64,000 nt of DNA. It comes from Selaginella moellendorffii. Taxonomy: Eukaryota > Plantae > Lycopodiophyta. This document shows positions 10,333-64,000 of this stretch, one piece after another (position 1 is the stretch's first letter; each line of letters begins with the position of its first letter). Under the pieces are notes generated by a model. The model was given only the letters and a program-made list of their open reading frames with translations, did no database searches and was not told the origin of the DNA. The translations under genes and the position numbers were made by a program. Where the stretch lies: NCBI RefSeq assembly GCF_000143415.4, contig NW_003314262.1:1415960-1479959 (forward strand), read 5' to 3'.

Positions 10333-10620
10333 ATGCTTTATTTCGTTAAAGTGGGACTTTTCATTATCCCATTTATGGTGTGTGGCCACATGCCATTTTT
10401 ATAACAACAATAAAAAATTGAAGTTTTAACTTTATAATTTATAAATTAAAAACTTTTCATATGATTTTGTGTTATAATATTGTGAAATATAAAAAAATAA
10501 ATTAAAAAACTGATAGAAATATTAATAAATATTAATTAAGTACTAGGAAATGGCATGTGGACACATGCTAATTAATGTCCCACTTTACTGAATAAGTCCC
10601 ACTTTAACGAAATAAAGCAT
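10333..10620. mobile_element. 288-bp MITE, non-autonomous relative of the 36799-49383 transposon
   Basis: 27-bp perfect TIR ATGCTTTATTTCGTTAAAGTGGGACTT. 4-bp TSD ATTG at 10329-10332 and 10621-10624. The empty site GAAGTTCATTGGAGC is present in the minus-strand Copia copy near 6140-6153. Confidence 0.92.
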
Positions 10621-23590: not shown

Positions 23591-25401
23591 TGTAAACGAC
23601 TAAATTTTCCATTCTACTTTAGTCACTTAACCACACCTCTGACCACTTGGAGGAGTCTTATTCACAACCTCTATAAGTCCAATTCAGGACTTGGGACTTG
23701 CTAGCCCCAAGAATGGCATCCATGCCACTCAACACTTGCACCTAGTCCAAGTGCTCCATGTGTCCGGTCCCAAGACCGACACCCAAAGGTACCACTGACA
23801 TCTTGGCCCGTTACGCTAAGGCCATGCCCATTCACCCTTGCTACACTAGTGGTCCAATACCACTTGCATCACCATCCCGTCTCTCCAAGACTGGGCCATC
23901 TGTCCACGAGTGGTCATCTTAGATCCACTCCTTAGCATCCTTAGGATGCCCACAGACTTGGGGAATCGCCTTCCCCAAAGTCCCTTTTGTCAGTTCCTAC
24001 GAAGTCCCTTTCTGCCCCTGGCCGTGTTTGCCAACACTGCCACTGGATCGAGGCCCACAGGCTCGACCACTAAGTCCCATGGTCCTCTGGGACTTCCTCA
24101 CCACACGACTGTGTCCTTGGTCACTACCCCAGAGGATTGCTCCTCTTCCTTTCCACAGTCTAGGCCTTTGGGACAACATTTCGGAACACCGTGGCCTTAC
24201 GCGAGCCACCTGAGTACTCTCCCCGCCTTTCGCCTTTAGGTGCTCTAGCCATGGGCTTAGAGCGAAGTTCCGTTGAGCCACGCCTGGTATCCAAGTAGGT
24301 AGTGCCACCCACACTTGGACTGGGAGCATCGGCCAGTCGATCTCCCGGGGGAACTAGAGCCGGCTCTTGAACACTTCACCAAGCTACCCCGCTTGTCGGT
24401 CCATATTCACTCTAGTCTTGGACTTCCCAGTGGTCAGTTCATCACCCAACACTGGGTCTAGCCTTCCTGGGCCAAACTGGCCTTTCCTGGCCAAACTGGC
24501 TCCATTGCAGTCCTCCCCCTTACTATACTTTTGGAGCTCACCAAACCCCCCAGGGTCTGGGAGACGAACGCTTTGGGCTTTCACCCTCTCAGACTCGAAC
24601 TCGGACTCGGACTCGGACTCGGACTCGGACTCAGACTCGGGCTCGGGCTCGGTCTCAGCCTTGGCCTCGGTCTCGGTCTCGGTCCTGGTCCCGGTCTCGG
24701 TCTCGGTCTCGGTCCCGGTCTCGGTCTCGGTCTCGGTCCCGGTCTCGGTCTCGACCTCGGACTCCATCTCGAGTCCTTTTCGGACTCCATCTCGGACTCC
24801 ATCTCGGACTCCGTCTCGGTCCATCTCGGACTCCATCTCGGACTCTGTCTCGGTCCATCTCGGACTCCATCTCGGGTCCATCTCGGACTCCGTCTCGGTC
24901 CACCTCGGACTCCATCTCGGACTCCATCTCGGACTCCATCTCGGGTCCATCTCGGACTCCATCTCGGACTCTATCTCGGGTCCATCTCAGACTCCGTCTC
25001 GGTCCACCTCGGACTCCATTTCGGGTCCATCTCGGACTCCATATCGGACTCCATCTTGGACTCCACTTCGGGTCCATCTCGGACTCCATATCGGACTCCA
25101 TCTCGGACTCCACTTCGGACTCCATATCGGACTCCAACTAGGGTCTGCCTCGGACTCCATCTCGAACACTTCCACGTGTCATGTGTTGGTCCTTTTTGGG
25201 TCCCTTTTTGGAGCCTTGCTTATTGCTCGCTTCGTGCTTGCTCCTTGAGCACTTTGTTGGGAGTTCCACTCCCGCTCTCGACCTTCCAAGTCAGAGTTTT
25301 TAGTCCAAACGTGTTACACTCGTTTGGGCTTTCGCTTCGGCCACTACCACGGGGCACCCTTTCCGGCTCCACTTTGGGGCCTAGGGATTTTGTGTCTCAC
25401 A
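23591..25401. mobile_element. Solo LTR (1811 bp), least decayed copy of the satellite-bearing LTR family
   Basis: TGTAAACG...TCTCACA with TSD TTGAG at 23586-23590 and 25402-25406. Confidence 0.9.
24592..25165. repeat. Compound satellite: (GACTCG)n, (GGTCTC)n, then the 12-mer CTCGGACTCCAT
   Basis: Directly visible. Decayed versions at 2530-2950, 32095-32520 and 62783-62990. Confidence 0.95.
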
Positions 25402-31074: not shown

Positions 31075-34000
31075 TACAAGCAACTAAATTTTCCATTATA
31101 CTTTAGTCACTTAACCACACCTCCGACCACTTGGAGGAGTCTCACACACAACCTCCATAATTCTTATTTTGGATTTGGGGCTGGCTAGCCCCGAGAATGG
31201 CATCCTTGCCACTCAACCTTTGCACTTGGTCCAAGTGCTTCACGTGTTTGATTCCATGATCAACACCTAAAGGTACCATCGACATATCAACTTATTACAC
31301 TAAGGCTATGCCCATTCACCTTTGCCACACTAGTGGTCCAACACCACTTGCATCACAGTCCCGTTTCATAAAAACTAGGCCATTCATCCATGAGTGGTTA
31401 TCCTAGATCCACTCTTTAGCATCCTTAGAATGCCCACAGATATGGGGAATAGCCTTCCCTAATATCCCTTTTTCAAGCCCTACCAAGTCCCTTCCTATCC
31501 ATGGCCGAGTTCACCGACACTGCCACTGGGTCAAGGCCCACAGGCCTGACCACCAAGTCTTACTATCCTTTGGGTCTTCCACACCATGTGACCGTAACTT
31601 TGGTCATTACACCAAAGGACTACCCCTATTCCTTTCCACAATATGGGACCTTTGGGATAACATTTTGGAACACCGTGGCCCTACGTAACCCTCATGGGTA
31701 CTCTTATCACTTTCCACCTTTGGGTGCTCTAGCCATAGGCTTAGAGTGAGGTTCTGTTGAGCCACACTAAGTATCCAAGTAGGTAGTGCCACCCACATTT
31801 GGATCGGGAGCATTGACCATTTGATCTCCCGAGGGAACTATACCTGGCTTTTGAACACTTCACCAAACTACCCTGCTTGTCAGTCTGTATTCACTTTAGC
31901 CTTGGACTTCTTAATGGTTTCTCATCATTCAACACTTGGGTATAGCCTTCTTGGACCAAACTGGCTCCACTGGGGTCCAACCCCCACACTTTCCCTACTA
32001 TACTTTTGGAACCCCCTGTAGCGCCCCCCCCCCCCCCACCTCTCCCAAGGGACGATCGCTTTGGGCTTTCACCCAACAGCTTGTATTAGTATTCGGACTC
32101 AGACTTGGACTCGAACTTTGATTCGGACTCAGTCTCGGTCTCAGTTTTGGAATCGGACTTGATCTCGGTCTTAGTCTCGCTCTTGATCTCGGTTCTATCT
32201 TGGACTCCATCTCAGACTCCATCTCGGGTCCATTTCAAACTTCATCTTGGACTCCATCTCGGGTCCATCTCGGACTCCATCTTGAGTCTATCTCAGACTC
32301 CATCTCAGGTCCATCTCAGACTCCATCTCAATTCCATCTCGGACTCCATCTCGGACTCCATCTCGGGACCATCTCAGGTCCATCTTGGGTCCATCTTGGG
32401 TCCATCTCGGACTCCATCTGGGGTCTATCTCATACTCCATCTTGGACTCCATCTTGGGTCTATCTCAGATCTACATCTCAGACTTCATCTTGGGTCCATC
32501 TCGGACTCCATCTTAAACTCCTTCCACGTGTCATATGTTGGTCCTTTTATATCCCTTTTTTAGAGACTCACTTATTGCTCGTTTTGTGCTCATTCCTCGA
32601 GCACTTCGTAGCAACATAGGATCACTACTTCTATTTTTGAGGTATCCTTTTGGTTCTATGGAAAAGGCTCTATTTTGCCAAGTCTAGAGGGTGTTCACCC
32701 CTAGTAGGTTTCTTTAGCATTTTTTACTACAGGCCCCATTGACAGCCCAACTTTGTGACCCTCCTATGGGTCTTTTCTATAAATTACTTATTTGGACTTA
32801 CTATACCATCGTATCGGCACAACTAATTTCCCTTTAAGTGTCCTTCCCACTTGGTCACCTTGACCAAACCATACCATTATCAATAGTTCAAATCAACACT
32901 TTGAACTAGGAACTTTATTCCTTAACCTCACAAGGACCTCACACTTGTTTAACCGTAAGATCATCTAGTGATCTAACTTTTGTCACCTTAACAGGTTTGT
33001 TAATAAGTACTAGGTTTTTGAAACCTTTAACTTGTTAACGATGACTCCGGGGCCATCCCTCACACTTGGCGATGCACCCAAGCTAGCCCTTCCGGCCAAG
33101 GGTCCATAGCAACTGAGATTGAGTGTCCCCATCTCCTTCACCACATCCTTGGTGCCACTTGCACCAAAGTGTTCAAGTTAGATATGACAAGCCACACTTA
33201 GCAATCTAATAGTGCTTCACAACTCCAAAGCATCCCCTACTTGGCAATGTGTCCAAACCAATCTCCTTACTAAGAGTCCATGACCACTAAAAATGAGTGT
33301 CCTCATATTCCAAACCATCACCCTGCCCTAGTGAGTTGGGACTTGAACCCATGCACGAGAGGGTTGGGACTCAAACCCAACCTTTGTATATGCATCTACG
33401 AATGGCATCACACAGGATGCTTCGTGTGACTCCCTACGTCGGTGCACTAACTTATACTTAAAGCATGCTATAGATCACAGCTTAAGAACTTAGTTCCTCC
33501 ACACTACCAAGTCTTCTTACTTGACAAATCTGTGATCATGCATAGATTCCTCCATGCTTGGCTCCATAGGCCACCTTTTTTGAAATTAGCACCTTCAACT
33601 AAAGGATTTATTCCCTTGACTTGCTAATCTCACTTAGCAAGTCATCCGACCAATGTAACATGGTTTCATGCATAAGTGTGAAAGTCCTTGACCATTAACT
33701 TTTACTCAAAGCTATCCCTTTGAACATTTGGGAACTACTTCCCTAACCTTGATAGCCTTGCCTTATGGTAAGTTTCAAAACCACATTTCTTCTATGCCAC
33801 ACTGATTTCACGTGTTTTATGAACTATTTAGATTTGGCTTTCTAGGTACTAAGTTACCTAGAATTATCTTTGGGAACCTTGAAGGAATTTTATCTCTTAG
33901 CTTGCTAAGGCCTCTCCTTTCGCAAGCTTTTTAATTGCTATAAGGTTTAACATGGATAATTCCATGCTTTAGACTCTCCATAGCATCACAGTTGTTAGTA

Positions 34001-36775: not shown

Positions 36776-37487
36776 CTCCCTTAGTATCAGGAGTTAATAA
36801 GCTCTATTTCGTTAAAGTGGGATTTATTCAGTAAAATGGGACTAGGTACAAATTTTCAAGTATTTGAAAATGACGTGAAATTATATGTTTTTTGTCCAGG
36901 GGCTAGACATATCTGGGGCATGGTGACTAGCGTGGTGACTTTGTGTCCAGACTGAGTCCATCTGGTTGTATAATAAATCTCATTGTCAAGGTGAACAAGC
37001 CGAATCTGAAGCTAAAGAAGAGCGATGGCATGCGCGCACACACTATTTGTTTGTTCATTGAGCGTGTGGTGAGCTTTCCAAGATGAACGTCATTCCTATT
37101 AGCCAGACATATAACTTAATGGTGAGAACATTTAGATATTATTCAATGTTATTTTTTTCTAACGAATCTAATTGTGAAGGTGTAGCAAGAGGCATTGCTA
37201 GTCTGGAGAAGTCATTTAACTCATTTGACCCTTAGTGTATTTTCATGAAACTAAATAACATTCATATTATTAAGGAATTTCTCTAGTACCTTTTTTTTAC
37301 GACATAGAGTCTTGCATTTCTTTCAAAGGTGATTTAGTAAAAGGCCTGAGAGCACATGCCATTCTATTTCTCAGACCGGTATTAAGATATACTAGTGCAA
37401 AGGGCCACATGCCATCACGCCTCCTCTGATTCAGATTCGGATTGTTCACCTTGAAATAAAATACATTAGAAACTTAGTAAAGGAATA

Positions 37488-40400
37488 TTAATGAATCTCA
37501 CCTTGAACCCGGGTTATGAATGCTCTTGCTGCATCTCTTGCATGGTCTGGCAAGGTGATGGTGGCACTCTGCTTCCGCATCCAACCATGCACAACATTAT
37601 CCACCGATATGCTCATGCTGGGATCCCTTGGATTCAGCACCCATCTCTTTTCTAGGCAATCCTTCGTATATCCGGAACTTGGCTTGAACCACTCCATAGT
37701 TACATTGAAGGAATTAGTTTCCGCGTCCTCCTCTGCATCAGTGATGCAGCGCCCCACCCATATCATTTGTTTTTTATTACTGGGTTTGACAAGCACGACC
37801 ATTCCTTTGCAGACCTGTACTGGATTGAATGCTGAATCCGGCTTCTTGTTCCTCGGCCCACAATAGTGATCCTCAACATCGTTATCTGTCACTGCATTTC
37901 CAGAGGACATTGTTCCGCTACTATCTAGTGCTCTGGGTTCTGGCCAAAAGGACTCTTCCAATTCTTCATATACAACCGGCCCATTTTGGATAGTAGATAT
38001 AATCTTCTCCCAGTATTCGAGCAAAGGCTTGCACCTCTTAAAATAGGATTCTCCACCAAACACTAACCCCCTCTTCCAGAAGGCAATATGCTGTCTAATC
38101 CCGGCCACTATACTTTCCTGGTCTTTGAGTCCATCCGGGTGCATCGGCCGTGGGGAACCCTGAGGAATCATAGGTTCCCCAGTTATGGGATCTCTCTTGA
38201 AGAGTTCAATGCCATCCACTGGCAGCCACACTGTGTCCCATTCTCTCATCTTGTACCTCATCACTGGAGCACCGTCACGCATGCTGAAATGAAACTGAAG
38301 AGGCTTGGAGTGGCCAATCAGCGTTTCGGATCCGTCCCTGATGTAGCCTCTTACAAACCCCTTAAAGTCTGGAACCTCTGTCACAAGTGCAGCTTCAACA
38401 GTGCCTTTGATGCAATTTTGGAATTCATCGTAGAGTTGTGGGAGGGTGAGGACATTGGATCGCCGGAGGGACTCTGCCAGGTGACTGAACATGGCATCGA
38501 CGTCTTCATGAGTGTGCCCAACCATGAGAAAGCCAAGTGTAACCGTTTCAAATATGCCTTTGGCAACAAGCATCGCCAAGTACGCGAAGACGTACATGTT
38601 TTTGTTCTCACTGCCAGCATTGTCTGTTTGGAGCAGAAGATGGGGTGGAAGGCCACATCGGCCGCAAGAACTTCCTTGAGATTCTGCTTCGTTTGGATGA
38701 GGCTGTGCATTCACCGGGCGACCAGCCTCGTCGGAATGGCATGAGGCCTCACGTGATAACCCTACAATCTGATGGCCAACATATTCACTGGGATGGCATG
38801 GGGCCCCACGCGATACTGCAAGCCTTTGCTCCTCCTCCAGCTGAACCCTGTATGGGGTTCGATCGACAAGGGCCTTATGCAAGGGTTGGCCGTTCAGCTC
38901 AGTCTGCGCACTTTGCAGAGAACTTAAGTGTTTTGCTAGGGACGCAATCATCATGTTTGCACCCCTGCCACCCCATAGAGGTACAAAGAAGTTCCCATAG
39001 TTCTGGGCACCATGCCCATGAGCGATTATGCCAAACAGAGACACAGGCAGCTGCATGGATGAAGAGATTGCCTTGGGAGCAGGATTGAGTCGAGGTAAGC
39101 ACGTCTTTTTCTGGTCCATTTTGTCGTGGATGATGCAGAGGTAAGAGTCAGGTCTCTCCATGGAGAGAATCCTGTTATGATAATATGCAGTCCTGCAGCT
39201 TCTCTGCTCGATGTTGTGGTCGAGCCGCCTTCTAACCAACGTCTCTCGCTCTTGAGCGCTGCAAGAATTCTTCGACAAAGCCATTTTGATAGCAGTGCAC
39301 TCGTCACACTTTGAAAAGCTGGAGTACTTTCCTATACTCACATCCCTGAACCTGTTGCTCCACAATCTACTAAATCTAGATTGGCTCAGCTTCCTGTAGC
39401 CATTACTCTGGAGTTCCCGATTCACATCTTCCAATATGGCCCCCTTGGTATACATGGAAGGGAGAACTCGTTGGGTGTCTCGTGTTCCATCTTCCAAGAG
39501 GCGGGTTTTATGTGGTTGCTGCTCGCTACATGTCTCGACAAACCTCTTGAAGATTGCCTCTCCATATACAACATGACCCCTGGTTTTGTGCGTACCGTCG
39601 TTCCCATGGACTGCCTGTTGAACCCTTTGTTCCTCAAACTCAGTTTTGATTCTGTAGAATGTGGTTCGAGGGACTCCATAAATGATTCTCCATGCCTTCA
39701 TGCAGACCAAACCCCTCTGGAAGACCATGCCCCCCACCTGGTGTTCTGAAGCATCAACAGATGACCGTAATGCCTCATACACAAAATTGCGAGCTGCCTT
39801 CCAGGACAATGTCTTGTATCTTGCTCTCTCCTCTTCAATAGCATCCCAATCAGCATGTTGACAGCACCTCCTCTTGCAACAAGCAACTGTCGAGACCATT
39901 CGAACCTCCATCGCCATTTTCTGCCTTTTCGGTTCGTTGCTCAGATCCCTTTGGCTGCGCTGTAGGAAGGTGTACTTTCTTTTCCCATGAAGAGATGTTC
40001 TGTCATCAGTTGTAGTGGTGTTTGATTGTGAATCCTTCACATTCTCAAACACTAAATGCCTCAATTTCCACCGCACAATGCTTCCAATAGTCAGACTGTT
40101 TTCTTCTGTGTCAACAACCTCTAAAATCGCAACTCCAATATCATCCCAGCCCAATTCTTGATTAGCAACCGCATCTCTTGGATCGACAACTGTGGCTAAG
40201 CCCTCAGCTACCACCTCCCCTTCGGGGTTGTTTAGAAACACCTTTGCCTGAATCCATGTAGCACGGTTCTTAAGATCCACGGAGGGAACATGCGTCGCAC
40301 TTGCACTGTCCCCAACATCTACTTTCTTCTGCAGATTTTTCAAGGCAACAACAACATTTACCCCGACGACCATCTCTCCTCGTTCAATAGCGACCACATT

Positions 40401-40556
40401 CCCATCGAAGACAGTCTCTACTGATACAGCAGCATTGCCTTCCCCAAGCCTTTGATAGTGTATAACAAAGTTCCAATCCATAGACACAAGGGTCCCTTTT
40501 GCAACTCTCTTCCCACCATTCAAAATGTAAACCTTTTCCCCAACCCTGAAGGCCAT
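37488..40556 (-). CDS. Sola1-like DDD transposase, 1022 aa, with two N-terminal Tnp1/En/Spm-like repeats
   Basis: Uninterrupted ORF. Cys motifs CCKRRCC and FSKCDEC. Candidate catalytic Asp motifs IIHDKMDQ, LQTDNAGSENKN and FLMVGHTHEDVDAMFS. The 4-bp TSD fits Sola. Confidence 0.85.
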   Translation of the reverse strand: MAFRVGEKVYILNGGKRVAKGTLVSMDWNFVIHYQRLGEGNAAVSVETVFDGNVVAIERGEMVVGVNVVVALKNLQKKVDVGDSASATHVPSVDLKNRATWIQAKVFLNNPEGEVVAEGLATVVDPRDAVANQELGWDDIGVAILEVVDTEENSLTIGSIVRWKLRHLVFENVKDSQSNTTTTDDRTSLHGKRKYTFLQRSQRDLSNEPKRQKMAMEVRMVSTVACCKRRCCQHADWDAIEEERARYKTLSWKAARNFVYEALRSSVDASEHQVGGMVFQRGLVCMKAWRIIYGVPRTTFYRIKTEFEEQRVQQAVHGNDGTHKTRGHVVYGEAIFKRFVETCSEQQPHKTRLLEDGTRDTQRVLPSMYTKGAILEDVNRELQSNGYRKLSQSRFSRLWSNRFRDVSIGKYSSFSKCDECTAIKMALSKNSCSAQERETLVRRRLDHNIEQRSCRTAYYHNRILSMERPDSYLCIIHDKMDQKKTCLPRLNPAPKAISSSMQLPVSLFGIIAHGHGAQNYGNFFVPLWGGRGANMMIASLAKHLSSLQSAQTELNGQPLHKALVDRTPYRVQLEEEQRLAVSRGAPCHPSEYVGHQIVGLSREASCHSDEAGRPVNAQPHPNEAESQGSSCGRCGLPPHLLLQTDNAGSENKNMYVFAYLAMLVAKGIFETVTLGFLMVGHTHEDVDAMFSHLAESLRRSNVLTLPQLYDEFQNCIKGTVEAALVTEVPDFKGFVRGYIRDGSETLIGHSKPLQFHFSMRDGAPVMRYKMREWDTVWLPVDGIELFKRDPITGEPMIPQGSPRPMHPDGLKDQESIVAGIRQHIAFWKRGLVFGGESYFKRCKPLLEYWEKIISTIQNGPVVYEELEESFWPEPRALDSSGTMSSGNAVTDNDVEDHYCGPRNKKPDSAFNPVQVCKGMVVLVKPSNKKQMIWVGRCITDAEEDAETNSFNVTMEWFKPSSGYTKDCLEKRWVLNPRDPSMSISVDNVVHGWMRKQSATITLPDHARDAARAFITRVQGEIH

Positions 40557-40700
40557 TCTGAAAGTGCAGAAAAGAAGTTAAGACCATACAAAAAATGATT
40601 GGAGAATGGCCTAAATCATAACATACCAAATAGCATGAGGCCACATGCCATTATTCAAACATGCTATTGACACCCACGTGAAATTTCGCATTCACAAAAT

Positions 40701-40927
40701 TGGCATGAGCCCTCATGCCATTAGTGGTACCACTAATGGCATGAGGCTTCACGCTATCTTTGGCCCCTGCTAGCCTGTTGCTATATTCCTTTTGCCTTGT
40801 TGCAACTGTATATATTTTTGTGTGCGTGACTAGTCACCCATACAAAAATATATACAGTTGCAGCAAGGCAAAAGGAATATGGCAATAGGCTAGCAGGGGC
40901 CAAAGATGGCATGAGGCCTCATGCCAT
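40701..40927. repeat. Overlapping palindromes upstream of the transposase: 56 bp (40701-40756) and 192 bp (40736-40927)
   Basis: Spacerless centres TAGTGGT|ACCACTA and GTGACT|AGTCAC; the arms end in 22-bp motif copies. Confidence 0.95.
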
Positions 40928-41117
40928 CTTGATATACACACAGCTGCAGGCAAGTAAAAACATACATGACAATACGCTAGCCATGAAATTGCAAGGGCCC
41001 AAGATGGCATGTGGCCTCATGCCATTTCTAAATGTGGTCCTAAACCATTCCATGGTGAACATACCAGGAAGCACAAGTGCCGAATATCAAGAGGAAGCGG
41101 TAGCCACACCAAAGACA

Positions 41118-41250
41118 GTGCCGCTCGCAACACCGCAACTACTCGTAGCGCCGCTCGCAACACCGCAACTGCTCGTAGCGCCGCTCGCACAAACTGCCAC
41201 TCGCATAAACTGCCGCTCGCAATGGCGCTCGCAATGCCGCAACCGCTTGT
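41118..41250. repeat. CpG-rich 30-bp minisatellite (GCCGCTCGCAACACCGCAACT.CTCGTAGC)
   Basis: Two full tandem units plus degenerate partial units. Confidence 0.8.
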
Positions 41251-42047
41251 AGACGCATAAACCACAGCTCACAACGCCGCTTACACAAGCAGCGCTCACT
41301 GCGCTCAGCGGAACCAAGAACACGGCGCACAAAAATGATAGACCTAGGAATGAGTTCGAGAATTCAAAAATAACACACGCTTGAACGTCACATCAAATCC
41401 TCTGACAAACCAGATCTTATGATTCCTCTGACAAATTTCAAACTGAGTAGCTTCTAGACTTTGCTGTCGGAGGTTGAACTTTGTCACATCATGTCCTTGC
41501 CTCGATCCAGCTGTGCCATGTCAGTGATTCGAACTTTGCCATGCCATGTCAGCGATCCGCGCCAAGATTATTCGCCGTGTAAAGGAATAATTATGCTGTG
41601 TGTGTACGTCCATTTATGGCAATATAAGGCCACACGCCATTCAATGAATAATGCTAGTCGAGCATTTTTTGGTGCATTTTTGGGTTCAAAATTGCATGAG
41701 CCCACACGCTATAAAGTTTACCTGTACCAAAAATAGAAACAGCTTTATTTACTTGGGAATTTATATGGCTGAGGCATTTTTAAACTTACAAACACATGCC
41801 CTACTTACATTCCTTTGGTTGCTTAAAATTCAAAAATATTATAAACCTTTTTTTTTGCATTTTCAATGTTTTCAATTATGGTTTTTGATTTTCGCAGGAC
41901 CAGCCTAGTAATCTATTTGCATCCCGTCATGTTTATAGCTAGCTTTCGTTTGTCCCCTTCGCTGGCCTGAGATACATCTGCTCGGCATCTGCCTCTTACA
42001 GCATTTGCCCAGAAAGGGCATCTTTCTTCACGCAGCATTTGCCACAT

Positions 42048-42080
42048 GTTTAGGGTTAGGGTTTAGGGTTTAGGGTTTAG
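42048..42080 (+). repeat. Interstitial plant telomere-type repeats / telo-boxes (TTTAGGG)
   Basis: GTTTAGGGTTAGGGTTTAGGGTTTAGGGTTTAG between the two divergent genes. Confidence 0.9.
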
Positions 42081-42799
42081 CAATTCAGTAGCTTGATAAA
42101 CATGCAAATACAGAACTTAATGCAAAATCCTTTGATATGTGACAATGCCCCTAGGACCATAAACACATTTCAATAGAGAGGGTCCTTTCATTTCATAACT
42201 CCTTACGTAGATCTTGGTGAAACCAGAGTTAGTGAAGTTGGTTTCTTGTGATCCCGCATCTGATTATGATGTCCCTTTGCAGTGTCGATGGAAAGGTCAA
42301 TGCACACCAAACTGTAGAATCTTGGAGCAAAATAACGGTCGGATCTATAGCAAATGCCCCTGAAACATTGTAAGGCTCGTGTGGTCTCATGTGGTGTCCG
42401 ATCGAGATGCTTCTTTGCAGGGTCATCAAGAAGGACATTGTATACCATTCTGTAAAATCTAGTTGCGATCTAACGGTTGGATCTCCAGGAAACTCAAAAC
42501 AATCTCGCGCGTGTCAGAATATTCTAGGAATATACTCCTATGTGCTCCTGAAAATGGCATGCGGTCCCACGCCATTCAAGAGATAACGCCAGATGACGCC
42601 GAGCATTTTTTAGTGCATTTTTTGGGATCAAAATTGCATGAGCCCACATGCTTGAACGTCACATCAAATCCTTTGACAATTTATTTAGCTGAACATCTGG
42701 CATTTTTGGAAATACAAGATGCTTTGGAATATCCAATCATGCATGGTATAAATATAGCGAGGGTATTAAATGATATCCCAATCATGATCTTTCTTTTAG

Positions 42800-43322
42800 A
42801 TTTCACGTGCATGCAGTCCGAGGAATGATGACGTTGCGGATTTCTTTTGGATTTCACGCATGCGCGCGCCGATCCAGAAATTAATGGTGGCGCCCAAGTC
42901 CGAGAAATGATGACGTGGCGGGATTACCAACCGTCGTGACATTTTGCGCGTGTGAGGTTAGGTTTTGCATTTTGCTTCGTACTCGCGCTCGCACACTCGC
43001 GCTCGCATCGCGCTCCCACTCGCGCTCCCACTTCTCTACAGGTTTCTCGTGTGCATCGGCGTCCACTCGCGCTTGCATCACACTCGCGCTCGCATCGCGC
43101 TCGTGTGCATCGGCGTCCACTTCAAGACACACCCAGTTTGTAACTTCGCCGCCAACTCCGCCGCCCACTCTGCCACCCACACGCAGCCCACTTGGCGTCC
43201 CGGGAGATTTCAGCGCCACTCTCCAACTGTAAGTGGCAGAGTAGCCTTGCTGCTACGATCCGCTGCACACACAGTGCACATTCGCCAGCGAGTCCGGTTG
43301 TCACGCCTCCATTCGGCTTCAA
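42800..43322 (+). promoter_or_regulatory. CpG-rich putative promoter/5' UTR of the cargo gene
   Basis: Dense CG dinucleotides, TGATGACGT repeats and short direct repeats directly upstream of ATG 43323; function is inferred. Confidence 0.45.
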
Positions 43323-46300
43323 ATGGTAAGTCTTTTAGGCCAAGTAGAAAATGGCATGAGGCCACATGCCATTCAGTAGCAACATTGGCATGCACCGATT
43401 GGGCTCTCGAGTGCAGTCCGGTTACAGATGGCGTGTAGCCTCACGCCATCTTAGGATGCAGCCTCAAGACATCTGATGCAGTGGTGAATGGCGTGTGGCC
43501 TCACGTTATTTCCAGCTACTAGCTTTTCATCTGTCAGCTCTAATTGTTGTGCATTTCTGAACAGGCAAGGAATTGCGTTCTTCTTCCAGCCACTGTCAAT
43601 GTGGATGCAGAGAAGGGGGAGGAGCTCACCAGTTGGACTTTTGGGATGGAAGGCGAGGATCTGAGGCTGTACAACACAGATGGTGGGAGAAAAGAATGCA
43701 TGGGGATCCTCATCCAAGTGACAGACACTCCATGCAGTTCCATGCAAGAATATGGACTGGCACTTGTGGTAGAGACAGCGTCTGCCTTCAAGATCCACCT
43801 TGCACATCCTAGCGGCTTTCCGGAGGGGGGCAGCGGCTATGAGGAATTCCTAGAGGGAGCTAGGGAGAGGTTGTCTAGGAGGCCCACAATTTCAAAGACG
43901 CTGCGGGTCTATGAAGATCACATGGAATCCACAGACCTCACCTACGGCGATGTTCAAAAACTATATTCCAACATTGAGCCGTTGAGAGTGACTCCAGTTC
44001 GCGAAGCAAAGGGGAAGGGGGTCGATCTGGAAACTACCTCGAAGCAGAAAAGGGTGGTCAAGCTCAAGCCGACGTCCGACTCTCCTGCTCCAAAAAAGAA
44101 GCTACTCAGTGATGCCATTGCCTCGGGTTCGAACACTACACCCACCAAAAAGAAGAGCCGCAAAGAGCAGAAAGAGCAAGAAGAGGCAGCAAAAATCGTC
44201 GCAGATAATAGTACTTGTTACTATTCCAACAAAGTATATACAATCGACGTGAGCCGTATCGACATCCAAAGCAAATACAACCACAGGCTAGTATCTGATG
44301 AGTGGGTGGAGAAACTGAAGCAGAAGATGCTGGCAAGTCTAGTAACACCCGACATCGCAGACGTGATCCCCTACTACCGAACAATGAAGGGCGAGACGAG
44401 GTTTCCAGACTTGATCAATAGGAAGGTGTTGGACGATCAGAACATCCGGTTCTATGCCGTCTCCGGGCAGCATTCTAGCTTGGCGATGCAAGAGATAGTT
44501 GTGGATATTATGGTGGGCGAGGAGGTGAAGAAAGTCTTCAAGACAAGAGTTGTCCGCCTGATAAAAGGCAACTCGCCCCTCCGATCTATCATATACATCT
44601 CCCACGCGCAGAATGTCAAGCAAGAAACGTGCTACAAATCGGGTCTGCACGAGACATTGGCACGAACACGGAAGCTCTGGGTTCAACTGAAGAAGCCACA
44701 AAAACCAGGACAAGGACGTGCACTAGCAACTAACGCCTGGCAGGTAAGCCTCGTTGCATGTGGCATAGCATGTGGCCTCACGCCATTTCCATTGCAGGAA
44801 TTCTCGAGTCTTCTCTCGAAAACACTGGGGGTCAATGACACACTCAGCATCCATAACATTCTACTCGCGACAAAAGTTGTTTTTGACAAATGGGTAGATG
44901 TGCTGAGGAGGTACCATGACGGGGAGTTGCCAAACTCAATGGGTGTGGAGGACGGCCGGAAGCCCAATGATTTGAAGCTCAACGCCTTGCGTTTCTCGTG
45001 GTCTCTAGACGACGACGACCTTCTGACAGTGGCTAATGCTCTTCTACGTGGTGAGGTAGTCTTCAACAAGACCAAAATGACTCCCGGCCATATTGTGACA
45101 TACGAGGACTTGTGCACGACTCTGAGAGCTCGTGCGCTATTGAAGGATTGGATCTTCGAGCAAGTGGCCGTGGAGAGGGTGAGCATCGACACCATGCAAG
45201 AGATGATGGAAGCGCTGGAGTTGTCAAATGAAGACATCGACGAGTACGTGAAGGGGGCCCCCAAGTTCATCGATCTGCTGCGGGATGCCACGAAAAGTAA
45301 AGCTGAGAAGTTGGATCAGTATCCAAATTTCATTAAGATTGATGTCGACCACCGGCTTCAGAAACAGCTCGACCCCGCAGCAGAGGCCTATCGAGAACCT
45401 TACCGGGTATACTTGAATTCGGATGAGGATCAAAGGTGGAGGAGCATCGTTTCCCGCGGAGATGAGCAGGTCAAGAACATCTTTTGTGTGATGGACTTCA
45501 CAAACGAGGAGATCACTCATGCAGACGAAGTCAGCTCCATCATTGACTTAATGGTGGGACTTGCGGAGGTGGAATCTTCAGTCCACTATATGATCTACGA
45601 CTCCGAATCCTATCACAAGTTCTGGAAGGCATTGAACGAGGTGAAGGCTCGGTTGAAAGGCAAGGAGATGCGGGAGATCCATGGGATAATGGCTAAGAAG
45701 AAGATACCGACGAATGTCCGCATCTTCACACTCGCCCTTGTTATTGGTCCTGCAGCAGAGTGGGACTAGAGTGACTTCCCAGCTTCGTTCGACAAGGCCA
45801 ATCGAATTGATCTGAGGGAGGTCAATTTACCCGTGCCTGAGGAACTGAAGACGGCTATGGAGCTTTCGAATCCAAAGAAAGCTCCAGGTGCAGCATGGGA
45901 AATGCTTAGCTGGGTCTTCAACGCAATAGCGGGTGGGTCACCTGCTTCCGACTCCAAGGGCAAATGCGTTGTCGAGTACAACTGCGGCGGACTATTCTTT
46001 CGAGCCGCACTACTCAAGGGTGTCCCGTGTGTTGCGGTAACAAACTCCATTGAAGAGGTGACTTCAATGGAGCATATAATTACAGTTGCCAAAGAAAAAC
46101 AGTATCTTCTCTGCGAACCTGGTGAGTACACACTTTAAGTTTAAATGTTATCTCACAAGCTCTGTATGCAGGAGCGTGGCCACCCCCAGATGTTGAAACG
46201 GCGTTAACAGCTACTGTTGAAGATACCCATGTTGGGCCGAGCTCACAACCTGCACAAGGTAAGGTCACGTGAGGCCTCACGCCATTTTGATTATAGATCG

Positions 46301-48941
46301 TTGTGAATATTCAGACACGAGGACTGAAAAGCGCACTGGTGGCGCATCGAAGAAGGACAAACAGACAAGCAATAGGAAAAAAGGAGGTACAAATTATATT
46401 TGCAATGGCGTGTGGTCTCATGCCATTCCTTGCAGGAGAAACTTCTTCAAAGGCAAAACAGGCAAGCACCAGCCAAGCTCAAACTGACAGTGGTCATAAA
46501 AAGCGAAAGCACGTTGGACAGTCGTCGAAATCAGAGGCGTTTGATTCGAAAAGGAAGAAGGGCAACGAAAAGATGATAGGTAATGCCTCGCGGTTATGGC
46601 GTGTGTGCTCATGCCATTCATTGCAGATCAAGGGCTGAGTGAAAGCAGGCAGTCACCACCTCATGACTCAGATTCCTATGGCGGACTCCCCTTCCCCAAT
46701 CTCAATGGAGAGGTACAATAGATGAGGGAAGCTTTTCAAGTCAGGGCCACGTTTTTCTCATCTCGTCGTCTTCGAAGGGTGCAAGAACGTGCAGAAACCA
46801 TGTTAAGACAGTCGGGTGAGGATACGGTCCTAGGTCACGCACTAAAACAGGCTATGGATGTCTTGTATTTTGAGATGGAGACTCGGCCAGATGATTTTCC
46901 CAAGATGGTCCTGGAAGAACAAGCCATCCAGCCTGAGCAGCCTATGGAAGAAATGCAGGAGGGGGATGAGGAGCCAGAGAAAGATAATGAGCAGGAAGAG
47001 CAGAAGGACGAAGAGGAGGACAAAGAAGAGGAGGACGAAGAAGAGGAGGACGAAGAGGACTTGGATGGTCCTCACAATGGTGACGATCACAATAATGACG
47101 ACGACGATGATGACGACGATGGCCAGCCTGAGGTGGCCAAAGAGCAGCGGAGGAAGGTCATACAAGACAAACCATCAGGTAAATAATAGTACATCCATTC
47201 CTAACCTTTTACCATTTCTAACATTGTCCATGTAGGTCGCAGAGCAAATGGTAAGTAGAGATTATTCAGTTGAATTTACAAACTCTAGCCTTTAGTGTCG
47301 AGGAAGGATAGTGCCAAGCAAGGGTCGAAACGTATGTCCAATCCTTCAGAATCAGCAGTGCGCCCAAGTGATATCGGTCCTAGTTCCTCAATAGCAGTTG
47401 ATGGTAAATACAGTATAGTCGATTCAATGTGCTAATGAGTTTGTTTTTAGTAGCACGGGAGGATACCATCTCAATCGAAGGGAGATATTTGGACATGCAT
47501 ATGGATCCGCCAGTGGACTCTACTTGGCTGCAAGAGTCATCAGAGCTGGTGGAGGCTACTATCCATATCAACGCCAAGCAAGCTGACCACGCTCCACTTG
47601 ATGCTGCCCATACCACTGAGTCAATCTTGTCCACGTATCCAACTGACGGTGACCAGGCGCCATTGGACCCACATGAGGCCGCCCCAGCCGCCGAGCCGGT
47701 CGTATCCTCATTTCCAACGGACTCAACATGTGCCCAATCGTCTGACTACGCGCCGTTGGAACCTCCCCCGCCCCTGCTGCCTGTTCGGTCATGTCCACTT
47801 TGCCAACGGAGGCACCAGCTGAAATGGCGTGTGATCACACGCCATCGGAACCACCCCATGCCACTGTTGAGCCAGTTGTACCAGAGTCTACAGCTGAAAT
47901 GGCATGTGCCCACACGCCATCGGATGCGATTGACCCCACATTGCAGAGGAGAGTATTTCCGCCCTTCACGTTTCCTCGACCAAAACCCTCTCAACGACCA
48001 TCGGGAGCAACATTCGCTAATATTGTAGATGGTAAAATTGACTTGTACCATTTTTTATGCTGACGCATTTCATTTCAGAGTCACGGCGAAGGTACTGTAT
48101 CGTTTTTGATCTGAACGGTGTCCTTTTCTCCCATGAGCGTGGCTCGTCCTCGAATGTCATTGCACCCTCCAAAGCCTGCGGTCGCAAGTTGGTCAAAAGA
48201 GACAGATTCACATTAATCACACGGGAGAAACTGCAGGATCTAATAATGACCATGCGACACTTAAAACAGAGGGCCGGGTTCAATTTGCAATTGGGAGTTT
48301 GGACATCCATGATGCGCCACAATGCATTAACGTTGCTACAGATGATGCACGATCAGACGCGAGTAATATTACCATTTGACTTTCTCCTAACGCAGGAGGA
48401 TTGCTTGAGTATGGTCCATGTGAGGGGTAGCAAGCCCATCTTCGTCAAGCCAGAGGCTGTAGTGATGAACCGGACTGCTAGCTCAAGTGAAATCCTCATC
48501 ATCGATGACTCGCCGATTAAAACTGCAGCGAACACGCACACATATGCAGTGCACCCCATCTCTTGCAGTATGGAAACTAGGGAGAAGAAACCGTATGTTC
48601 TGGGGGACCTTGCAAAACGGCTTGGAGCGATGGTGATAGAGAACCGGCCAGTCCAGGAGGTGGCTGCAGAAATCAACCAAATGGCAGATGGAATGGTATA
48701 TCAAAAGCCATTTGATCGGACAAACACCAGTCATCATTTATGGCATGTATATTGTCTAGCCAAGCACTATCCGCATCTCCATAATCTGCTCAACCGGATG
48801 GGTTCTTCGACCACTGAACATGAGCGTGGACGTATTAGAGAAGAGATGGCATTACTATTGGGTTTAAATCCTGATAGTGTGGAGAGTGATGAAATTCCAA
48901 GATTATTGTATAGGCGTTGGAGGCAAAAAATAACAGTCTGA
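43323..48941 (+). pseudogene. Transposon cargo gene, 11 exons, ~1640 aa: ParB-like domain, MTase-like segment, acidic/low-complexity linker, FCP1/NIF-type HAD phosphatase; three lesions in this copy
   Basis: GT-AG introns at 43326-43564, 44744-44797, 46122-46171, 46259-46314, 46387-46435, 46580-46626, 47179-47235, 47251-47295, 47404-47450 and 48032-48078 join the ORFs in frame. In-frame TAGs at 45767 and 46719, and a 1-bp frameshift in the C-run near 47762-47775. Confidence 0.8.
48079..48941 (+). CDS. Terminal exon: FCP1-homology (NIF) HAD-superfamily domain
   Basis: IVFDLNGVL (motif I variant), GVWTSMM (II), FVKP (III), LIIDDSPIK (IV). Confidence 0.8.
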
Positions 48942-49383
48942 GATGGCATGTATTTATTTAAAAATGTAACTTATTATGGCATGGGGTTCCATGCCATTGT
49001 ATTAATATTAAAAGACAATTCTTTGAGAGGATTTGCATTATACTAGAAGTGTTACAGCATGTTATTGGAAGTCTACGAAGTTGTTTTATTAATAAGGGGA
49101 AAGTAAAGATTGAATGGGGACTTGGGCTCCACCTAGACTCGGAGCAACTGAGCCAATATTAAAAGGATGGAAAGAAATTGGGCGACGATGACAAGGAGAA
49201 GAGAGAGGTGAAGCAGTGGCAGGGGGAGGAGAAGTGATTGAGTAGACATTTCCTTGTTTAAAATAAAATGGCATGTGCCTCAATGCAATTGAATTTTGTT
49301 ATATTTATATACTATATAAAGGTTTGGAAACCTTATTTTACAAGTGGGATAATGACAATTCCCACTTTAACGAAATAGAGCTT

Positions 49384-61600: not shown

Positions 61601-64000
61601 ATCTCTAAAAGATCCAAAAGATCAACAATGTGAGGAAGAGGGTACACATCTGGGATCGTCACTTCATTTAACAAACGATAGTCAATGCAGAAATGAATAC
61701 TTCCATTAGGCTTTATCACAAAATGATGTTTATATGCCCAAGGACTTTGTAACTTTTGAATAACACCCTTTTCCAACATCTCCTTGACATTTGCATGTAA
61801 AATCTTGATCTCTTTGAGTGACTGACGATGAATAGAAACCTTAATTGAAGGAACATCCCTGGTTCGAATCAAATGACGTGCGGCAATTTTAGCCCCAAAA
61901 GATCCATCTTGTTCCACTCTTCCCTTTTCCGATCCTTTCAACAATCTTTGTGTTTTAGCAATTAACCGGCTCATGAAGGAGTATACGTAAGCCACAAATT
62001 TTTCTTTTTCAATTTTCCAGCTTACCTCATCTATCCAACCAACACTTCTTTGGACTTAACTAAGTTCCCTTGCCAAGGTTCTTGCCTATGGTATTAACTC
62101 CTACTTGAACTCCTACTTGGTTTCAGCTACTCACTACATGAGTTATGGAGTATTAGCCATCCATCCACAGATTCCCAAATCTCTCCCAATCCACCTCCCC
62201 AGGTTAGACTAGACTTAAGGTTAAGCTACACTCCTCGCAGGCATAAGCATCCAAGCACACCAAGCCTCCAAATTTTTAACATCCCTTTGTACCACAAAAC
62301 TTGATTATGGGACCCTCTAAATCCCAAGCCTTGGGTGCAACACTTGCTCCGGGATGCGGGGGGAAACATTGTGGCCTAGCAGCCCAATATGGGTACCTCT
62401 ACTCCCCCACTTTCATCCCGAAGGGAAGGCCTAAGCCTCTAGGCAAGGTGAGGACCAATCAACTACATGGTACTCAAGTGAGGCACCACTCCACATGAGC
62501 TGGGAGCACCACAATTGATTTCCCTTCCAGGAGTGAGAGTTGCTCTTGAGCACTTCCTAGGGTGGCCCCTCCAGCACCACCCAAGTCTATGCTCACTCCC
62601 ACCTAAGGCCCCTCGGCCCCAATCTCAACCTCAAGTTAGTTTGGAAGCACCACTGGAGAGTTCCTTCAAGAATGGTTCCTAGACCTCACTATCCCTACTA
62701 TACTTTGGAACCCCCTGCAACACACCTCCCCCCCCTTGGGAGACACACGCTTTGGGCTTTCACCCCTCGACCTGTATTAGTACTCGGACTTGGTCTCGGA
62801 CTCGATCTCGGACTCAATCTCGGACCCAACCTCAGACTCGGTCTTGGACTCGGTCTCGGACTTGACCTTAGACCTGATCTCGGACTCAACCTCAGACTCA
62901 ATCTTGGATCTCGGACTTTGTCTCGAATTCGGTCTCGAACTCGGTCTCGGAGTCGGTCTTGGACTCGATCTCAAACTCGGTCCCATCTGATGAACTCTTT
63001 ATCATTTCTGTCGTGCTTTCGGGGATCCTTTGCCTACGACACCTCAGAGAGTTAGTTCTTTACAATATACCGATCTCTTTGAATTTGACTTAAACATAGA
63101 AAGAAGTAGTGGGGAGACAAAAGTAATGGAAGTAGAGGTAGAAGTAGAAAGACAAAGAGGTATGGAAGTGAGGGGAATGGATAAAATATAAAGAAGTATG
63201 AGACAAGGGGGAGAAGCCTCAAAGTCACATTTGGTATGATTGCATTGCAACCAATCCATACTAAGGATGAGGTTAAAAGCTTAACTCAGCACTACTCACA
63301 ATGACTACAACCCAAGCTTGAAATTGCCTACACGCACAACTAGGTCTGCCTCATCTCGTGCACATGCATATGTATGGCTATTGCCATAAAGAATGAAAAC
63401 TAGCTCTACCGTATGACATAAGTGTAGATGGCAACGTATGGCAACAGGTTGAGTAATAGAAGATAAACTTGAACCTATATCAACTAACACAAAGAGAATA
63501 ATAGAAGACCTTTTATTATAAAAATGAACTTAGAAAGTAAATATTGGATGAATTAGTGCCAAATGAACCCCTTAATGATACTCCCGAAAGAAAAATAGAA
63601 GGGTCATTGACTTATTTATACAAGGTCTCTCTACTACTCACACAACTCCTTGTTTCCCGAAAGCATCTTAGTGTTTAGACTTTCCATTGCAGAACATTGT
63701 TGACACTAAAGTCTCTACCCAGGAAATAAAAGTTGCCACTCCAGAATACGCTTACAACGCCAATAAGTGTGACTAACTTCATCATATACCCAACAACAAC
63801 CACAACCATGTTCTCACCCTTGTTTTGGAACTCAGGCAACAGTAGCATCAATTTCCCATTTCCCACAAAAAGTGGAATTGAAGGATATGCAACAATAAGT
63901 GGAAGAGGTGACCAAATGAAAAGCATCGTCAAAAGTGGTTAGAGCAAGTATATACATAACTCCTACAAGATCTTAATAAATTGTTGGTCACAATATTCTC
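58638..64000 (-). mobile_element. Degenerate Gypsy (3' LTR 58638-58813, PPT, integrase, RNase H, RT, protease remnants), same family as 1-4344, with insertions near 59720-60040 and 61895-63045
   Basis: ILSDNGPTF, TSAYHSQSDSLVE, DAFDIRLGGVLMQ, FIDDILIHS and CIDYRLLNEVT remnants; LTR matches 4169-4344. Confidence 0.85.

Follow-up and report, generated by a model that had tools for sequence, protein, structure and literature searches.

A ParB-like accessory gene with palindrome-bearing predicted introns in a DNA transposon of Selaginella moellendorffii

A transposon with an opposite-strand accessory gene

The stretch analyzed here (hereafter the window) comprises 64,000 nucleotides of the Selaginella moellendorffii genome (NCBI RefSeq assembly GCF_000143415.4, contig NW_003314262.1, positions 1,415,960 to 1,479,959, forward strand) and harbors a DNA transposon with terminal inverted repeats (TIRs) that spans 12,585 bp (36799–49383). 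The element encodes a DUF7869 transposase on the reverse strand (37488–40577) and, on the opposite strand, an accessory gene of 11 predicted exons (43323–48941, forward strand), with a divergent intergenic region at 40551–43322. A 22-bp palindrome recurs throughout the element and within several predicted introns of the accessory gene, and the function of these intronic copies is the subject of this analysis.

Both ends of the element are perfectly matching 24-bp TIRs (36799–36822, forward strand, and 49360–49383, reverse strand), flanked by a 4-bp target site duplication (TSD, TAAT/TAGT, one mismatch). A miniature inverted-repeat transposable element (MITE) of 288 bp at 10333–10620 shares these ends with 2 mismatches, possesses a perfect TSD (ATTG), carries palindromes at 10375 and 10550 and lies inside a Copia-like coding region; it shows that the family mobilises non-autonomous copies. 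The 4-bp TSD of both MITE and element and the TIRs are features by which the Sola superfamily is defined in the accessible part of PMC10741241, whereas the same part gives a TSD of 7–12 bp for Mutator-like elements. Helitron ends were dropped as candidates because TIR and TSD are present. The transposase frame is open from stop to stop over 1029 codons and matches DUF7869 alone in Pfam (PF25273, E 2e-42). We found 74 homologues, the named ones being from Riccia and Ceratodon, and the transposase alignment (A1) contains the conserved acidic motifs DKMD, DNA and HEDVD. A profile search of the PDB with the transposase gave no useful match. GT-AG intron candidates in a loop of the transposase were rejected, as this loop is open and variable in length among the homologues.

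Downstream of a ParB/Noc-type domain, the accessory protein is predicted to contain a helical and then a methylase-like part, followed by a low-complexity linker and, at the end, a NIF phosphatase. The N-terminal ParB/Noc-type fold (44195–44743, forward strand) was modeled with a pLDDT of 76, and the model aligns to M. xanthus ParB (7bnk) with a Z-score of 11.2 and an rmsd of 2.1 over 95 residues. Foldseek returned Noc and ParB as top matches, and the Atlas neighbor of the region is a DUF3723 cluster (0.95). ParB proteins carry the signature GxxRxxA, which includes the arginine motif for CTP binding; the corresponding position reads GQHSSLA here and thus differs from it, while G91, H93, R118 and N140 are invariant in alignment A3. 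A degenerate N6/N4-methylase-like region (approximately 45400–46121, forward strand) is suggested by a match to the Selaginella homologue P0076, whose model is similar to PF01555 clusters (about 0.4 in TM by query, with one row reaching the naming bar). No Pfam match to a methylase domain was obtained for the accessory protein, nor were the catalytic motifs of such enzymes seen in it. The last exon (48079–48941, forward strand) encodes a NIF/HAD phosphatase-like domain (PF03031, E 3.7e-6, above the cut-off). Neither word-index searches for proteins similar to the accessory protein nor a profile search of the PDB with its family found anything; HMMER gave 18 weak matches. P0077 and P0080, which looked like repeat artefacts, were left out of the accessory alignments.

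All ten predicted introns of the accessory gene are of the GT-AG type. Exons 4–9 are multiples of three in length and introns 3–9 are in phase 1. The initial annotation had assigned phase 1 to the eight 3′-most introns; for intron 10 this applies only if a frameshift in exon 10 is allowed for. This exon measures 581 nt in the window and 585 nt in contigs of the sequencing runs X1 and X2, which carry 4 additional letters at 47767. Together with the frameshift, stop codons at 45767–45769 and 46717–46719 mark the gene as a broken copy. X2 contigs differ from the element by about 1%; A>G and T>C account for 66 of the 97 changes, a pattern that would fit decay of the window copy by cytosine deamination.

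Retention of the introns is predicted to introduce an in-frame stop in seven of the ten cases and a frame shift in two, while intron 2 (44744–44797, 54 nt, phase 0) is in frame and free of stops. For this intron, homologues provide a comparison. The four annotated gene models spanning the site (Selaginella P0076, Calypogeia P0081, Riccia P0090 and P0091), which are predictions themselves, lack the 18 residues, and the raw open reading frame (ORF) calls P0075, P0079 and P0082 end there as W-K-V or W-K-V-G. Among the rest of the 16 aligned homologues, four enter unrelated tails near the site, three start just downstream and two are uninformative. The position of intron 2 is hence common to homologues of 20–30% identity. 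This comparison and the positions of branch-like sites described below lend indirect support to the gene model, and we infer splicing at the predicted junctions.

A 22-bp palindrome in non-coding DNA and at predicted branch sites

The palindrome, with the consensus ATGGCRTGWGGCCWCAYGCCAT, occurs in 26 copies in the window when up to 5 mismatches are allowed, compared to 0.14 expected from 100 shuffles; 24 copies lie in the TIR element and the remaining two are those of the MITE. The initial annotation had placed the motif in five of the ten predicted introns, which our analysis bears out with seven intronic copies. Intron 1 (43326–43564, 239 nt, phase 0) contains three (starting at 43351, 43428 and 43488), and one copy each resides in intron 2 (44765–44786), intron 4 (46259–46314, 56 nt; copy at 46264–46285), intron 5 (46387–46435, 49 nt; copy at 46405–46426) and intron 6 (46580–46626, 47 nt; copy at 46596–46617). 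The distances from the palindrome to the intron end are, in the same order, 192, 115, 55, 11, 29, 9 and 9 nt, so that the three copies reported to end 9–11 nt before the intron end are those of introns 2, 5 and 6. The 22-mer accounts for 39–47% of the length of the four short motif-bearing introns, in line with the earlier description of it as filling almost half of them. Intron 3 (46122–46171, 50 nt) and introns 7–10 (47179–47235, 47251–47295, 47404–47450 and 48032–48078) are free of the motif.

The initial annotation did not mention the other 17 copies of the element: two in exon 10 (47824 and 47899), two in the transposase ORF (38736 and 38793) and 13 elsewhere in non-coding DNA, eight of which belong to the divergent intergenic region. 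Within the accessory gene, seven of the nine copies are intronic (P ~1e-6 for uniform placement). Compared to the other non-coding DNA, the intron excess is mild (10.1 versus 3.3 copies per kb, P=0.022; P=0.12 with the three intron 1 copies counted once). The depletion from coding DNA (0.5 copies per kb) is pronounced: 15.2 of the 24 copies would be expected there and four occur (P=3e-6), and these four are confined to a length-variable loop of the transposase and the Pro/Ala-rich exon 10. The earlier suggestion that introns offer places for binding sites which spare the protein is therefore supported, as it is by the related elements described below. A distance of more than ~600 bp separates 20 of the 24 element copies from the nearest element end.

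At the paired arm positions 6 and 17, the 26 copies read AT (10), AC (8), GC (4), GT (3) and CT (1), i.e. both positions vary independently (Fisher P=0.67) and compensation is absent. This independence of the arms agrees better with a DNA site read as two half-sites than with conservation as an RNA stem.

In introns 2, 5 and 6, the gap of 9–11 nt before the acceptor places the palindrome where a branch site may be located. In eight of the nine short introns, the A of a YTNAY lies between −15 and −18, whereas 5000 shuffles gave 1.1 such introns on average and never more than 6; this range was set after inspection, and the five motif-free introns alone give −17 (CTCAC in intron 3), −15, −18, −16 and −16. 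In introns 2, 5 and 6, the sole YTNAY within this range is a CTCAY in the right arm of the palindrome, with the A at −18, −16 and −16, respectively. It is the only YTNAY altogether in introns 2 and 5, and intron 6 has a second one at −7. Intron 1 possesses a separate branch-like CTAAT at −22. The CTCAY-type variant of the palindrome is found in six of the seven intronic copies and in 5 of the 19 others (P=0.011). The palindrome likely lies 9–11 nt before the acceptor because its right arm overlaps the branch site, an explanation that the initial annotation missed. This overlap in introns 2, 5 and 6 is suggestive rather than proven.

Related elements and the weighing of explanations

We searched metagenomes for relatives of the transposase. 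Of the 463 stretches that were confirmed, the best 80 were evaluated, and these represent 63 distinct loci after merging near-identical ones. At 42 of these 63 loci, we found at least three copies of a palindrome with the core GTGGCCAC, which is like the center of the window motif. Since the loci are kin, this count overstates their independence. None of the 297 palindrome copies of the 42 loci falls into DNA aligned to the transposase, where 89 would be expected; loci with fewer than three copies contributed 4 more such matches, and shuffles yielded 7 in 758 kb. In many relatives, 3–11 copies flank the transposase and an accessory gene was not detected. The relatives share a transposase intron that the window transposase lacks. 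It was found in 40 distinct loci, three of which were dropped for poor anchoring (L055, L073 and L074), and it carries the palindrome in 10 of the remaining 37 and is free of it in 27. The searched viral contigs contained neither a relative nor the motif.

Own, different palindromes characterize L001, L081/L082, L089 and L092. L081, L082, L089 and L092 are among 14 loci on contigs filed as prokaryotic metagenome-assembled genomes, and L089 and L092 have spliceosomal-type introns. Both also encode a divergent ParB-like gene, which hhalign relates to the accessory family with a probability of 63% (E 7e-5), and 8 of the 33 palindromes of L089 are situated in one predicted 468-nt phase-1 intron of this gene. 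As a side observation, these two bacterially filed contigs hold intron-rich, eukaryote-like transposons, one beside a Pif1/OTU gene, and the bins likely contain eukaryotic DNA. NIF/HAD-phosphatase-like remains adjoin DUF7869 transposases in L006 (3454–5366), L045 (6576–6889) and L078 (13534–15620). The family-specific palindromes of DUF7869 elements measure 16–22 bp and are dispersed or arranged in tandem arrays.

We consider it somewhat probable that the palindrome is a DNA docking site for the ParB-like protein of the element, situated in non-coding DNA, and that it has taken over the branch site in the smallest introns. A dimer of the accessory protein would bind the double-stranded palindrome, which would be retained wherever the protein code tolerates it. 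The accessory protein and not the transposase would be the reader, and many sites would allow it to coat the element, probably keeping the element active or holding its ends together. In the three smallest motif-bearing introns, the palindrome likely doubles as the branch site for splicing: a 22-nt site would fit a 47–54-nt intron only by replacing the branch site, which would fix the gap of 9–11 nt to the acceptor. Symmetric phase-1 linker exons would allow exon-intron units and their sites to be gained or lost without a frameshift.

Several observations weigh against this explanation. Three of the four single-copy introns have the palindrome at the branch position, and such placements occur by chance with only P=0.02; intron 4, where the palindrome directly follows the donor and a YTNAY at −25 lies outside it, breaks the rule, and introns 2, 5 and 6 may share one origin. 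The palindromes in the transposase intron of the relatives lie ~90–210 nt from the acceptor, so branch overlap is not general. The same is true for intron siting, as none of the 17 palindromes of L092 falls within the span of its accessory gene and L045 retains accessory-gene remains without a palindrome. Such remains (ParB-like, helical or NIF-like) were identified at only 5 of the 63 loci (L006, L042, L045, L059 and L078), and most loci have their palindromes close to the transposase and to the element ends, where transposase sites would be expected. In the accessory protein, we located no DNA-binding domain and no helix-turn-helix (HTH). Finally, about 12% of each of two RNA runs contained no spliced read and left the gene almost uncovered: 197 and 121 reads were placed, nearly all on 43226–43265, and two reads of X8 cover 43567–43642. 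The run X1, taken as RNA only by guess, retains intron 1 and accordingly behaves as DNA.

The distribution among the relatives raises the question whether the palindrome is instead bound by the transposase, with the intronic copies being tolerated overflow and the accessory protein doing something else. Subterminal repeats of Ac or En/Spm are transposase-binding sites, and both the persistence of the palindrome in the 288-bp MITE and the many relatives with copies around the transposase agree with this idea; the overlap with the branch site could be compatible with it, too. Nevertheless, the position of most copies far from the element ends speaks against it, and a ParB fold is encoded alongside, bacterial ParBs being readers of palindromes (bioRxiv 2025.02.11.637652, accessible part). 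Moreover, the relatives have decayed and many are truncated; little can thus be concluded from an absent accessory gene, whose product can also act in trans. Taken together, we regard binding by the transposase as rather unlikely.

Two further explanations start from the introns themselves. The initial annotation had proposed that motif insertion seeded new introns, and a palindrome-plus-acceptor cassette copied within the gene might indeed have created introns, chiefly the phase-1 linker introns, though we see only a slim chance that this is the main cause. Introns 2, 5 and 6 resemble each other mainly across the motif and the 3′ tail T(T)CMTTGCAG (z 6.6–6.9, motif unmasked), the motif would provide a branch site, and one X2 contig harbors a fourth such end, a further motif followed by 9 nt and AG that enters exon 6 in phase 1 and is missing from the window (loose end at 46474). 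Introner-type elements give rise to sets of almost identical introns at positions unrelated to one another, host genes included. Against seeding stand the position of intron 2, shared with distant homologues, the five introns without the motif and the 27 relatives whose transposase intron lacks it; the flanking exons 4–9 are mutually dissimilar (z≤1.3) and there is no trace of exon duplication. The proposal is thus weakened for intron 2 and by the transposase intron of the relatives, and the phase-1 linker introns are where it may still apply. A broader variant, in which the protein-binding palindrome has turned into a functional splice signal and a palindrome-plus-acceptor cassette of ~31 nt supplies the branch point and is copied within the gene to yield new phase-1 introns and added docking sites inside the coding sequence of the element, possibly with feedback of the protein or a hairpin on splicing, appears quite improbable to us. 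The last idea takes up the initially proposed regulation of splicing by a hairpin: folded as RNA, the palindrome would mask the branch point and thereby control how the accessory gene is spliced. Stems covering the presumed branch A are predicted for introns 5 and 6 (−14.5 and −16.2 kcal/mol, compared to −0.7 to −9.0 kcal/mol for the motif-free introns), but the arms lack covariation, 17 of the 24 copies are non-intronic, and the copy of intron 2 with its two arm mismatches is not predicted to form the palindromic stem. A selected hairpin is very unlikely, and the stems could be a side effect. The docking site is thus the explanation that we prefer, and overall the initial interpretation holds in part: siting in introns is upheld, regulation by hairpins is not favored and seeding is narrowed down.

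Known systems and implications

Some features of the locus stand apart from these questions. The divergent intergenic region contains a 192-bp fold-back (40736–40927), for which Rfam returned sub-threshold miRNA-type hairpins only; the fold-back segment 40700–40927 is bounded by palindrome copies, and an X2 contig skips 40700–40907 as if deleted between two copies. Approximately five telomere-like GTTTAGG units lie between both genes (42048–42080). The 5′ region of the accessory gene includes a 40-nt match (43226–43265) to a very abundant RNA with differing flanks (172 and 111 loose-ended reads). We presume that it resembles the 3′ part of the large-subunit rRNA, for which Rfam gave no confirmation, and it is possibly a captured rRNA piece. 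Elsewhere in the window, a repeat family with 6-, 12- and 23-bp tandem arrays of GACTC/GTCTC is present at 2500–2970, 24580–25160, 32090–32520 and 62760–62980.

We compared the element to systems already described. According to the accessible part of PMC12477816, the Ectocarpus element Sola1-1_Ec32 (21.5 kb, 4-bp TSD) encodes, opposite to the transposase strand, a ParB-methylase for which binding and modification of the element itself have been proposed. By this description, both elements share the TSD length and an opposite-strand accessory gene with a ParB-like domain, while they differ in TIR length (282 bp there, 24 bp here), in host (alga versus land plant) and in the degenerate methylase part and additional NIF phosphatase found here; the main text of that paper contains no match to 'palindrom' and, as far as accessible, describes no intronic sites. 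Plavaka PAG3 of Bostrychia likewise combines a ParB-like accessory protein and inverted repeats, the proposed binding sites, in one element (bioRxiv 2025.02.11.637652, accessible part). It differs in its EnSpm/Plavaka transposase, a ParB-2OG oxygenase fusion and tandem arrays beside the gene, none being described there in introns. In Arabidopsis, binding motifs of VANC21 lie in VANDAL21 introns (PMC5735166, accessible part), and this system shares an element-encoded accessory protein, short motifs that accumulate in non-coding DNA (introns, intergenic and terminal parts) and a variable exon-intron layout. VANDAL21 is, however, Mutator-like, its 9-bp motif is non-palindromic and arranged in tandem arrays, and its protein is unrelated; binding and demethylation have been demonstrated there, whereas binding is a proposal for the element here. 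The concentration of target motifs in introns and other non-coding parts is hence a trait common to both.

With bacterial ParB-parS and Noc-NBS (PDB 7bnk, 7bm8 and 7ol9), the element has in common the N-terminal fold and palindromic sites dispersed within the same element, and it differs in being eukaryotic and intron-containing, in the signature GQHSSLA and in that no HTH was located and no ParA was seen. Chlorophyte methylases fused to ParB-HTH have been reported (PMC4738411, accessible part), and ParB is unmentioned in the accessible part of PMC12730594. In a literature search that was thin on subscription journals, supplements and figures, we found no paper on palindromes in accessory-gene introns or on their overlap with branch sites. 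The design as such, i.e. Sola1 with ParB-methylase, inverted repeats and VANC sites in introns, is already published for algae and Arabidopsis; the additions made here are the land-plant case and the branch-site overlap.

For transposon-borne ParB-like proteins, binding to their own element has so far been proposed, and the element described here supplies a sharp 22-bp candidate site. The family-specific palindromes of DUF7869 elements constitute a ready set for tests of protein-site co-evolution, and the variants of the relatives are usable for swap tests. If the branch-site overlap is true, one sequence would compactly combine two roles, a protein site in DNA and a signal for splicing, which would open a possible route of intron gain.

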